Source of the DNA: Escherichia coli
GTDB taxonomy: Bacteria > Pseudomonadota > Gammaproteobacteria > Enterobacterales > Enterobacteriaceae
DNA length: 64,000 bases
Strand: one strand, 5' to 3'
Assembly: GCF_013315695.1 (NCBI RefSeq)
Contig: NZ_CP054353.1
Below, piece by piece: positions 56,511 to 60,519 of this stretch. The translations under genes and the position numbers were made by a program. Under the pieces are notes generated by a model that had not been told where the DNA came from, searched no databases, and saw only the letters and a program-made list of their open reading frames with translations. Position 1 is the first letter of the stretch, and every line of letters starts with the position of its first letter.

Positions 56511-59500
56511 ATGGCGAATTTCTTTATTGATCGCCCCATTTTTGCCTGGGTGCTGGCAATCCTGTTGTGTCTGACAGGTACCCTGGCGATTTTTTCATTG
56601 CCCGTTGAACAATACCCCGATCTCGCGCCACCGAATGTGCGAGTGACCGCTAACTATCCCGGCGCATCGGCCCAGACGCTGGAAAACACCGTGATCCAGG
56701 TTATCGAGCAAAATATGACCGGCCTCGATAATCTCATGTATATGTCGTCTCAGAGCAGTGGCACCGGCCAGGCATCTGTCACGTTAAGTTTTAAAGCAGG
56801 CACCGATCCGGACGAAGCCGTGCAGCAAGTACAAAACCAGCTGCAATCAGCCATGCGAAAGTTACCGCAGGCGGTGCAAAATCAGGGCGTGACGGTGCGT
56901 AAAACCGGCGATACCAATATTCTGACCATTGCCTTCGTCTCTACCGATGGTTCGATGGATAAACAGGATATTGCCGATTACGTTGCCAGTAATATTCAGG
57001 ATCCGTTAAGCCGCGTGAATGGCGTCGGGGATATCGATGCCTATGGTTCGCAATATTCCATGCGTATCTGGCTGGACCCGGCGAAACTCAACAGTTTCCA
57101 GATGACGGCTAAAGATGTCACTGATGCCATTGAGTCACAGAACGCGCAGATTGCGGTTGGGCAACTTGGTGGTACGCCTTCCGTCGATAAGCAGGCGCTC
57201 AACGCCACCATTAACGCCCAGTCACTGCTGCAAACACCAGAACAGTTCCGCGATATCACCTTACGGGTGAATCAGGACGGTTCAGAGGTAAGGCTGGGCG
57301 ATGTCGCCACCGTCGAAATGGGGGCGGAGAAATACGATTATCTTAGCCGCTTCAATGGTAAGCCAGCCTCCGGGCTGGGGGTAAAACTGGCCTCCGGCGC
57401 GAACGAAATGGCGACTGCGCAGCTGGTGCTCAATCGTCTCGACGAGCTGGCGCAGTATTTTCCACACGGACTGGAATACAAGGTGGCGTATGAAACCACC
57501 TCGTTTGTTAAAGCCTCCATTGAAGACGTGGTGAAAACGCTGCTGGAAGCTATCGCCCTGGTTTTCCTCGTTATGTATCTGTTCCTGCAAAACTTCCGCG
57601 CCACGCTGATACCCACTATCGCCGTGCCGGTGGTGTTGATGGGAACCTTCTCCGTACTTTACGCCTTCGGTTACAGCGTCAACACCTTAACCATGTTCGC
57701 GATGGTACTGGCGATCGGTCTGCTGGTGGATGACGCCATCGTGGTGGTGGAAAACGTCGAACGTATTATGAGTGAGGAAGGACTCACTCCTCGCGAAGCC
57801 ACACGTAAATCGATGGGGCAGATCCAGGGGGCACTGGTCGGGATTGCGATGGTGCTTTCGGCGGTATTTGTACCAATGGCCTTCTTCGGCGGCACCACCG
57901 GTGCCATCTATCGCCAGTTCTCTATTACCATTGTTGCGGCGATGGTGCTGTCAGTACTGGTAGCGATGATCCTCACTCCGGCTCTGTGTGCCACACTACT
58001 TAAGCCACTGAAAAAAGGTGAGCATCACGGGCAAAAAGGCTTTTTTGCCTGGTTTAACCAGATGTTTAACCGCAACGCCGAACGCTACGAAAAAGGGGTG
58101 GCGAAAATTCTCCACCGCAGCCTGCGCTGGATTGTGATTTATGTCCTGCTGCTTGGCGGCATGGTGTTCCTGTTCCTGCGTTTGCCGACGTCGTTCTTGC
58201 CACTGGAAGACCGGGGCATGTTTACTACCTCGGTACAGTTGCCCAGCGGTTCAACCCAACAACAGACCCTGAAAGTCGTTGAGCAAATCGAGAAATACTA
58301 CTTCACCCATGAAAAAGACAACATCATGTCGGTGTTTGCCACTGTTGGTTCTGGCCCTGGGGGTAACGGGCAAAACGTGGCGAGAATGTTTATCCGCCTG
58401 AAAGACTGGAGCGAACGCGACAGTAAGACCGGCACCTCGTTTGCCATTATCGAGCGTGCAACGAAGGCGTTTAACAAGATTAAAGAAGCTAGCGTTATCG
58501 CCAGCAGCCCGCCAGCAATTAGCGGTCTTGGTAGTTCTGCAGGTTTTGATATGGAGTTGCAGGACCACGCTGGAGCGGGTCACGATGCGCTGATGGCAGC
58601 ACGAAACCAGTTGCTGGCGCTGGCAGCGGAAAACCCGGAGCTAACCCGTGTGCGCCATAACGGCCTCGACGACAGTCCGCAGTTGCAGATTGATATCGAC
58701 CAGCGTAAAGCTCAGGCGCTGGGCGTTGCTATCGACGATATTAACGACACACTGCAAACCGCCTGGGGTTCGAGCTATGTGAATGACTTTATGGATCGCG
58801 GTCGCGTGAAGAAAGTCTATGTGCAGGCAGCTGCGCCGTATCGCATGCTGCCAGATGACATCAATCTCTGGTATGTCCGAAATAAAGATGGCGGCATGGT
58901 GCCCTTCTCTGCTTTCGCGACCTCACGCTGGGAGACAGGCTCGCCGCGTCTGGAACGCTATAACGGTTATTCTGCGGTAGAGATTGTAGGGGAAGCCGCA
59001 CCGGGGGTCAGTACCGGTACGGCGATGGATATTATGGAATCGTTAGTGAAGCAGCTGCCAAACGGCTTTGGTCTGGAGTGGACGGCGATGTCGTATCAGG
59101 AGCGGCTTTCCGGCGCGCAGGCTCCGGCGCTGTACGCTATTTCCTTGCTGGTGGTATTCCTGTGTCTGGCGGCGTTGTATGAAAGCTGGTCGGTGCCGTT
59201 CTCGGTAATGCTGGTCGTGCCGCTGGGGGTTATCGGCGCGCTGCTGGCAACCTGGATGCGCGGGCTGGAAAACGACGTTTACTTCCAGGTGGGCCTGTTA
59301 ACGGTCATTGGTTTATCGGCGAAAAACGCCATCCTGATCGTCGAGTTTGCTAACGAGATGAACCAAAAAGGCCACGACCTGTTTGAAGCGACGCTCCACG
59401 CCTGCCGTCAGCGTTTACGCCCGATTCTGATGACTTCGCTGGCATTTATCTTCGGCGTATTGCCAATGGCAACCAGCACGGGTGCCGGTTCCGGTGGTCA

Positions 59501-59624
59501 GCATGCGGTGGGTACTGGCGTAATGGGCGGGATGATTTCGGCCACTATTCTGGCTATTTACTTCGTGCCGCTGTTCTTTGTGCTGGTGCGCCGCCGCTTC
59601 CCGCTGAAGCCGCGCCCGGAATAA
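56511..59624 (+). CDS. acrD: RND-family multidrug/aminoglycoside efflux pump AcrD
   Basis: 1037-aa [44 protein letters not shown]…. Confidence 0.95.
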
Positions 59625-59662: not shown

Positions 59663-59722
59663 CAATTTTCCGATTAAGAACCTGCTCAGCGGGTTCTTGC
59701 TGTTTGTACTTTGTCTCAGGAA

Positions 59723-59782
59723 TTACTTACGAAGCATAACTTCGATAAAGTCTTTCCAGTTCCCCAGTTCACGTTCAATCAT
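59723..59782 (-). CDS. ypfM: Small protein YpfM (19 aa)
   Basis: Minus strand ATG ATT GAA CGT GAA CTG GGG AAC TGG AAA GAC TTT ATC GAA GTT ATG CTT CGT AAG TAA = MIERELGNWKDFIEVMLRK; too short for the ORF track; matches the K-12 small-protein position between acrD and yffB. Confidence 0.6.
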   Translation of the reverse strand: MIERELGNWKDFIEVMLRK

Positions 59783-60144
59783 AACAACCTCTCTTATAAT
59801 TATGGGTATTCTACGGAAACAATATACCGTGGTGAAGCTAATTTACTCGATTGCTGCGATGACTACCTCCGGGGGACAAACCTTATGTAAATACTATGGT
59901 CCTGCGGTGATAATTTGTATGTGATACACAGCAACATTTCGAGATATTCATACGGCATCTAATACTGATTTAATTCTGGCTAAAATACAGACAGATAACA
60001 AGATGAATATTTTTAATGTTTACGTTAAAAATGTTTAATATTATTTAATAGTTGTTAATTTGAATACTTCGATAATGTTATATTTCCTGATAATCATTTG
60101 CAGGCAAAATGTTTTCACCCTTAAATGAGTATTTATTCTCATAA

Positions 60145-60519
<375 letters not shown>

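Follow-up and report, generated by a model that had tools for sequence, protein, structure and literature searches.

The DNA between acrD and yffB of Escherichia coli raises the question of which of the reading frames that overlap on it is a gene and, if this is a minus-strand frame of 19 codons, what its product and its transcript do. In the first-pass annotation positions 59723-59782 of the window, by which the whole analysed stretch of 64,000 nucleotides is meant, were read as the small protein gene ypfM on the minus strand, and translation of this strand yields MIERELGNWKDFIEVMLRK followed by a stop codon, exactly as had been claimed. The coding sequence (59782..59723, minus strand, 19 codons plus TAA) starts with an ATG at 59782-59780, ends with a TAA at 59725-59723 and reads ATG ATT GAA CGT GAA CTG GGG AAC TGG AAA GAC TTT ATC GAA GTT ATG CTT CGT AAG TAA. 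A Shine-Dalgarno sequence, GAGAGG, is located at 59793-59788, i.e., 5 nt from the ATG, and within the ORF a 7-nt direct repeat (GAACTGG) occurs in two copies. The position between acrD and yffB, which the same annotation had given, is borne out by the ORF layout and by the RefSeq annotation, from which the names of the neighbours are taken: acrD is the adjoining ORF of 1037 aa (56511-59624, plus strand) and yffB the ORF of 118 aa on the other flank (60163-60519, plus strand), next to which dapE follows. Hence ypfM is antiparallel to both, converging on acrD and diverging from yffB. It was also correctly pointed out that ypfM is missing from the program-made ORF track, which is a length-threshold effect, as the mechanical ORF lister stops at 20 aa; what the track lists over the same DNA is a plus-strand ORF of 75 aa (59697-59924), which is present as had been stated. 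The 3.5-kb stretch around ypfM is touched by as many as 58 ORFs with 20 or more residues. On its own, a 19-codon ORF is not beyond chance, and the case for ypfM therefore rests on other evidence, whereby the match to a family model, the conservation of the frame and the published detection of the protein confirm that the gene is real.

The feature is an already catalogued E. coli gene and, as such, an ordinary finding. RefSeq carries the CDS "ypfM: protein YpfM" (WP_001386977.1) on DNA that is 100% identical, placed between acrD and yffB and running against both, and the peptide matches the NCBIfam equivalog model NF033843 (small_YpfM) with 59.2 bits (E = 2.4e-16), with residues 1-19 aligned to profile positions 1-19 of 19. 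The curated cutoff of this model is 33 bits; for the search one dummy C-terminal residue was appended to the query, and the matched stretch is the native peptide. A score above the cutoff with full-length coverage, the orthologous position and the coding selection described below together place the peptide in the NF033843 family, and the match to the known K-12 YpfM that had been stated in the first-pass annotation thus holds. The YpfM of E. coli K-12 shares with it the 19-residue sequence, the position, the orientation and the published promoter, hence it is the same gene. That the gene is ypfM and that it is translated is considered highly probable. A Pfam search with the YpfM peptide returned no family match, and a profile search of solved structures, which covered only chains of at least 20 residues, returned just a chance match over 9 residues (E = 1.6).

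Within the species the locus is near-universal, as a 571-nt query across the acrD-yffB interval matches 5425 of 5426 complete E. coli genomes, with the region counted as present in 5409 of them. The best 571-nt match is a UK clinical isolate, and the strain of the window need not be K-12. For the 60-nt ORF, 4787 of 5424 E. coli records reach an identity of 99% or more. The 3'UTR allele of the window (59663-59722, 60 nt) is rare, with an identity of at least 99% in only 56 of 5389 E. coli records, and the ypfM unit of this strain differs from that of most E. coli only in this non-coding 3'UTR.

Conservation of the 19-codon frame across enterobacteria had been named in the first-pass annotation, next to ribosome profiling, as a check on the gene. 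It was carried out with 80 loci from different Enterobacterales species, which were fetched via the neighbouring YffB protein and not via YpfM, since circularity was to be avoided. The frame is kept in 72 of the 80 loci, on the strand opposite to yffB and with both an ATG and a GAGG-type Shine-Dalgarno sequence. Exactly 19 codons are found in 70 of these 72 loci, or in 71 of 73 sequences when the window is counted. The two exceptions are Yersinia nurmii, where the gene has 20 codons, and one allele from Lelliottia nimipressuralis (locus L028, ATG at 2111 on the minus strand), in which a K19N exchange and the loss of the stop codon extend the ORF to 30 codons and which may represent natural variation or an error of the assembly. 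There are 55 versions of the gene at the nucleotide level and only 22 peptides, and ten of the 19 positions are invariant across Enterobacterales, namely M1, E5, W9, K10, F12, I13, M16, L17, R18 and K19. The column entropy amounts to 0.21 at both the first and the second codon position and to 0.71 at the third. Pooled pN/pS according to Nei-Gojobori was lowest in the ypfM frame, at 0.154; the antisense mirror frame gave 0.309, and values of 1.77-2.01 were obtained for the four out-of-phase frames. Selection thus acts on the amino-acid sequence of YpfM, a conclusion which is strongly supported by these data.

The synonymous sites of ypfM are themselves more conserved than those of its neighbours: over one set of 40 species, pS was 0.335 for ypfM, whereas yffB and the ends of acrD (3') and dapE (5') gave 0.59-0.61. 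A pS as low as this occurs in 5.6% of the 18-codon windows of yffB, acrD and dapE, and the pN of ypfM is ordinary. The wobble positions of codons E5 and K10 are nearly invariant. Mundane candidates for the low pS are codon preference and the translational constraints that act close to the start and the stop of such a short ORF. The low pS nonetheless leaves room for an additional role at the RNA level, which is taken up below.

Conserved elements outside the ORF were surveyed in an alignment of 30 species in ypfM orientation. A consensus scan identified a -35 hexamer (TTCACC, 59836-59831, minus strand) and a -10 hexamer (TAGAAT, 59813-59808, minus strand), which agree with the consensus at 9 of 12 positions and form the sole sigma-70-like site of the local scan; in the alignment cTTCAC is conserved and GTAnAAT is nearly invariant. 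TTCACC-17-TAGAAT is also the ypfM promoter given in a published map of the sites that RpoD holoenzyme binds in genomic SELEX (PMC3946193). Two hexamers at a spacing of 17 nt, their conservation and the published RpoD SELEX site (PMC3946193) together identify a sigma-70 promoter. Judged from the position of the -10 hexamer, transcription would start near 59803-59801, which predicts an A-rich 5' leader of about 20 nt, AUAAUUAUAAGAGAGGUUGUU (59803-59783, minus strand), containing the Shine-Dalgarno sequence at 59793-59788. The majority-base fraction of this leader is 0.78, AAGAGAGG at its end is nearly invariant and it is rich in A-R-N triplets (AAU AAU AAG AGA). A hairpin enclosing the AUG, as found when the E. 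coli leader is folded, was rejected, as it needs a U in whose place most other genera have an A. Upstream, the spacer between ypfM and yffB (59783-60162) has a GC content of 31%, and of 27% in its part 59900-60162, the whole window having 53%. H-NS was reported in this spacer (PMC3946193), and a MarA ChIP site was reported in the corresponding Salmonella spacer (PMC10268841).

At the other end, the transcript is closed by an intrinsic terminator (59664-59622, minus strand), which consists of a stem-loop at 59664-59629 (AAAAGGCGACA...UGUCGCCUUUU) and the U tract UUUUUUAUU and which adjoins the acrD stop codon (59622-59624). This terminator was found in 71 of the 73 sequences scanned, i.e., the species loci plus the window. 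Its stem is paired in 94.4% of the alignment cells, 8 of 11 pairs show compensatory changes and none of 500 shuffles was as good, the controls obtained by sliding the stem being paired to 34-64%. The hallmarks of a Rho-independent terminator are thus present, i.e., a GC-rich hairpin that runs into a U tract and compensatory changes that preserve the stem. The stem lies between an A run and a T run and abuts the acrD stop codon; it can therefore terminate both convergent genes and can act as a bidirectional terminator common to ypfM and acrD.

The stretch between stop codon and terminator, i.e., the ypfM 3'UTR (59722-59665, minus strand), is conserved neither in sequence nor in length. The majority-base fraction in the 30-species alignment is 0.90 for the ORF and 0.71 for the terminator, and drops to 0.42 for the 3'UTR, which is effectively unalignable between genera, and the distance from the stop to the terminator ranges from 30 to 91 nt across species. 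In Escherichia, folding and a scan for terminator-like structures identified a lineage-specific hairpin in the 3'UTR, at about 59699-59675. Taken together, promoter and terminator strongly support that ypfM is a monocistronic sigma-70 unit whose RNA has a length of about 180 nt, reaching from the inferred start at ~59803-59801 to ~59622. For the Salmonella ortholog a stable short RNA of about 220 nt was identified on Northern blots (PMC2515195), and the estimate of ~180 nt agrees with it.

Translation of this RNA is documented by published mass spectrometry. Top-down analysis revealed intact YpfM with 100% coverage and an N-terminal formyl-Met (PMC12529367), and the peptide was also detected by DIA and by PRM against synthetic peptides (PMC12529367). 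In low-Mn minimal medium it was found in all PRM replicates, together with MntS (PMC12529367), and it is counted among the small proteins that were "commonly identified", another, independent large proteome study having found it too (PMC12529367). This published mass-spectrometric evidence for the translation of YpfM is stronger than what Ribo-seq would give. As to what the peptide does, ypfM was still called "of unknown function" in a paper from 2025 (PMC12093975).

YpfM carries four positive and four negative charges, hence its net charge is zero, and its hydrophobic segment is too short to span a membrane. When arranged as a helix, the peptide has a hydrophobic moment of 0.55 as compared to 0.27 for shuffled versions, of which 3% reach a value as high. 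The hydrophobic stripe formed by I2, L6, W9, I13 and M16 is invariant or varies conservatively, with F12 and L17 flanking it, and the hypervariable positions 4 (R/H/T/V) and 15 (V/G/D/A/Q/L/N/S) locate to the polar face. We infer the helix solely from this periodicity of the sequence. A conserved hydrophobic face combined with a variable polar face is the pattern expected of an amphipathic helix that docks by one face, and YpfM, being too small for an enzyme, is presumed to act by binding. The reading preferred here, which is held tentatively and at somewhat less than an even chance, is that YpfM would be a trans-acting docking helix on a larger partner protein. In this mechanism the sigma-70 promoter (59836-59808) gives rise to the small mRNA of ~180 nt with its strong Shine-Dalgarno sequence, which is translated into a stable, N-formylated peptide of 19 residues; these steps are strongly supported. 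In the cytosol, YpfM would fold as a single amphipathic alpha-helix, whose hydrophobic stripe would dock onto the larger partner and thereby modulate it. The invariant residues E5, K10, R18 and K19 lie off the hydrophobic face, hence the model may draw the binding surface too narrowly, or these residues may be kept by another constraint, such as one acting on the nascent chain.

Other bacterial small proteins are known to dock onto larger proteins and to modulate them, among them MntS, which has 42 aa, and AcrZ, which has 49 aa and binds the RND pump AcrB. With small proteins of this type YpfM has in common a transcript of its own, a strong Shine-Dalgarno sequence and conservation within the enterobacteria; moreover, its gene adjoins that of an RND pump, acrD, as AcrZ binds the RND pump AcrB. 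The differences are that YpfM is without the transmembrane segment of AcrZ and is much shorter than both MntS and AcrZ. Modulation of the neighbour AcrD, by analogy to AcrZ and AcrB, or of the ArsC/Spx-like YffB would be one variant of such an action. It is considered here together with a second, RNA-level function of the ypfM transcript, and it is improbable that either of the two applies.

Comparison of the loci bears on such a link. The AcrD C-terminus adjoins ypfM in 71 of the 72 ypfM-bearing species loci, and obligatory linkage of ypfM to acrD was nevertheless rejected, as the two genes occur apart in both directions: in Dickeya ypfM is kept next to yffB with acrD not adjacent, its neighbours being ORFs which, from their sequences, we take to be cspE-like and crcB-like, and in Erwinia endophytica acrD is present and ypfM absent. 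In Yersinia nurmii ypfM lies next to acrD and 1.5 kb away from yffB. The gene neighbourhood thus does not settle the partner of YpfM.

Some of the loci from which ypfM is absent carry other genes in its place. In the acrD-yffB spacer of Erwinia endophytica the place of ypfM is taken by an unrelated minus-strand ORF of 64 aa (L081:2162-2356). In Erwinia piriflorinigrans, where both acrD and ypfM are absent, an ORF of 533 aa with a hydrophobic C-terminal region lies upstream of yffB (L073:186-1787). In Enterobacter sp. CC120223-11 the acrD-ypfM block upstream of yffB is replaced by other genes (L062:98-2164), including two ORFs of 120 and 114 aa with the common N-terminus MPNIKDLNFDEIALVSGG, which, by its sequence, looks like a double-glycine leader of the microcin or class II bacteriocin type. 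Between these two lies an ORF for a multi-pass membrane protein of 215 aa, possibly an immunity or CPBP-type protein.

Besides the docking helix, it has to be considered that the RNA itself may have a function, i.e., that Hfq also binds the ~180-nt transcript, or a fragment from its 3' part, and that this RNA base-pairs with other mRNAs. SgrS/SgrT is the model of an RNA that both base-pairs and encodes a protein, and RNAs of this type resemble ypfM in being short, Hfq-associated and in encoding a small peptide. For ypfM this idea derives from the conservation of the synonymous sites, from the A-R-N-rich leader and from the association of the Salmonella transcript with Hfq, to which the 3' end formed by a strong terminator with a U tract may be added. 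The transcript of the Salmonella ortholog, STnc250, is located between acrD and yffB on the opposite strand and contains the ypfM ORF (PMC2515195); it was enriched 4-fold in Salmonella Hfq co-immunoprecipitation, with cDNA reads over a 3' portion of 94 nt (PMC2515195), and its Rfam entry, RF01409, bears the name "Hfq binding RNA". In the window, RF01409 matches at 59743-59624 (minus strand) with 37.6 bits (E = 1.8e-5 to 3.8e-6) and thus falls short of the 42 bits set as its gathering threshold; a scan of the entire 64-kb window (1-64000) at gathering score found no Rfam family. Partial matches to CsrC and STnc240 were rejected, as they cover the generic terminator hairpin only.

Several findings argue against this dual role. 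The RF01409 alignment is restricted to the end of the ORF and the terminator, the middle being unrelated and 36 nt long as compared to 9 nt in the model, so that the match points to no conserved candidate seed outside the ypfM ORF. Outside the ORF only the promoter, the Shine-Dalgarno sequence and the terminator are conserved, whereas the 3'UTR, the expected place of a seed, defies alignment between genera and varies between 30 and 91 nt; here ypfM differs from RNAs of the SgrS/SgrT type, whose conserved base-pairing region outside the ORF has no counterpart in it. The hairpin inside the ORF (59744-59730, helix 1 of RF01409) is paired to 90.7%, yet without a single compensatory pair and with 500 of 500 shuffles as good; in the absence of compensatory change it was ruled out as a selected structure. 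The 4-fold enrichment is modest, and Sittka et al. themselves reclassified STnc250 as a small mRNA (PMC2515195). STnc250 and the ypfM RNA are orthologous transcripts, of which the 3' end of the ORF and the terminator align and the central 3'UTR is unrelated. The sRNA label "Hfq binding RNA" of RF01409 hence misleads, for the family represents the 3' part of a small mRNA, that of ypfM; moreover, its model transfers poorly between genera. A conserved seed outside the coding constraint, by which a dual-function sRNA would be recognized, was thus not found in ypfM, and the low pS is the one residual hint. A base-pairing function in addition to the coding one is accordingly regarded as unlikely; if true, ypfM would be a dual-function RNA of only 19 codons.

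Even less of the evidence fits an action in cis, according to which ypfM would encode a leader-like or arrest peptide, or would act locally, through its shared terminator, through transcriptional interference or through antisense transcription that reads into the 3' end of acrD, with a peptide that is not diffusible. The arrangement itself would suit this, as ypfM converges on acrD with one bidirectional terminator abutting the acrD stop codon and acrD is adjacent in 71 of 72 ypfM-bearing loci, and conservation at the amino-acid level is also seen in arrest peptides. Yet at ypfM there is no downstream gene on the same strand to be regulated, the terminator is strong, present in 71 of 73 sequences and, at its variable distance from the stop, unlike the geometry of an attenuator. 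Moreover, YpfM accumulates as an intact, detectable species (PMC12529367), and Dickeya keeps ypfM without acrD alongside. An action in cis is therefore very improbable.

That the gene proper is the plus-strand ORF of 75 aa (59697-59924), with the 19-codon ORF only incidental, has a practically negligible probability: the 75-aa ORF is the longest over this DNA and its frame has a pN/pS below 1 (0.31), but it lies in the antisense mirror frame and shares its wobble positions with ypfM (0.31 versus 0.154), so that the apparent constraint is inherited from ypfM, it begins with TTG and has no evident ribosome-binding site, it is without RefSeq annotation, and the part of it beyond ypfM covers the conserved ypfM promoter. 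In the 73 loci compared, this frame holds ORFs of anything from 0 to 108 aa, with neither start nor stop conserved and with conservation only opposite ypfM. The mirror-frame position and the erratic length effectively refute it as a gene; what remains is the shadow cast by ypfM on the opposite strand, extended over promoter DNA, and the first-pass annotation was right in calling it unsupported.

As ypfM has long been part of the E. coli annotation and mass spectrometry has detected its product, the finding has no weight as a discovery. It is a clean positive control, in that a gene of 19 codons which is absent from mechanical ORF lists was recovered by reading and the longer shadow ORF over it was rejected. 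The comparative detail, i.e., ten invariant residues out of 19, one variable face of the predicted helix, a 3'UTR that varies freely and somewhat over-conserved synonymous sites, can guide mutagenesis and the search for partners.
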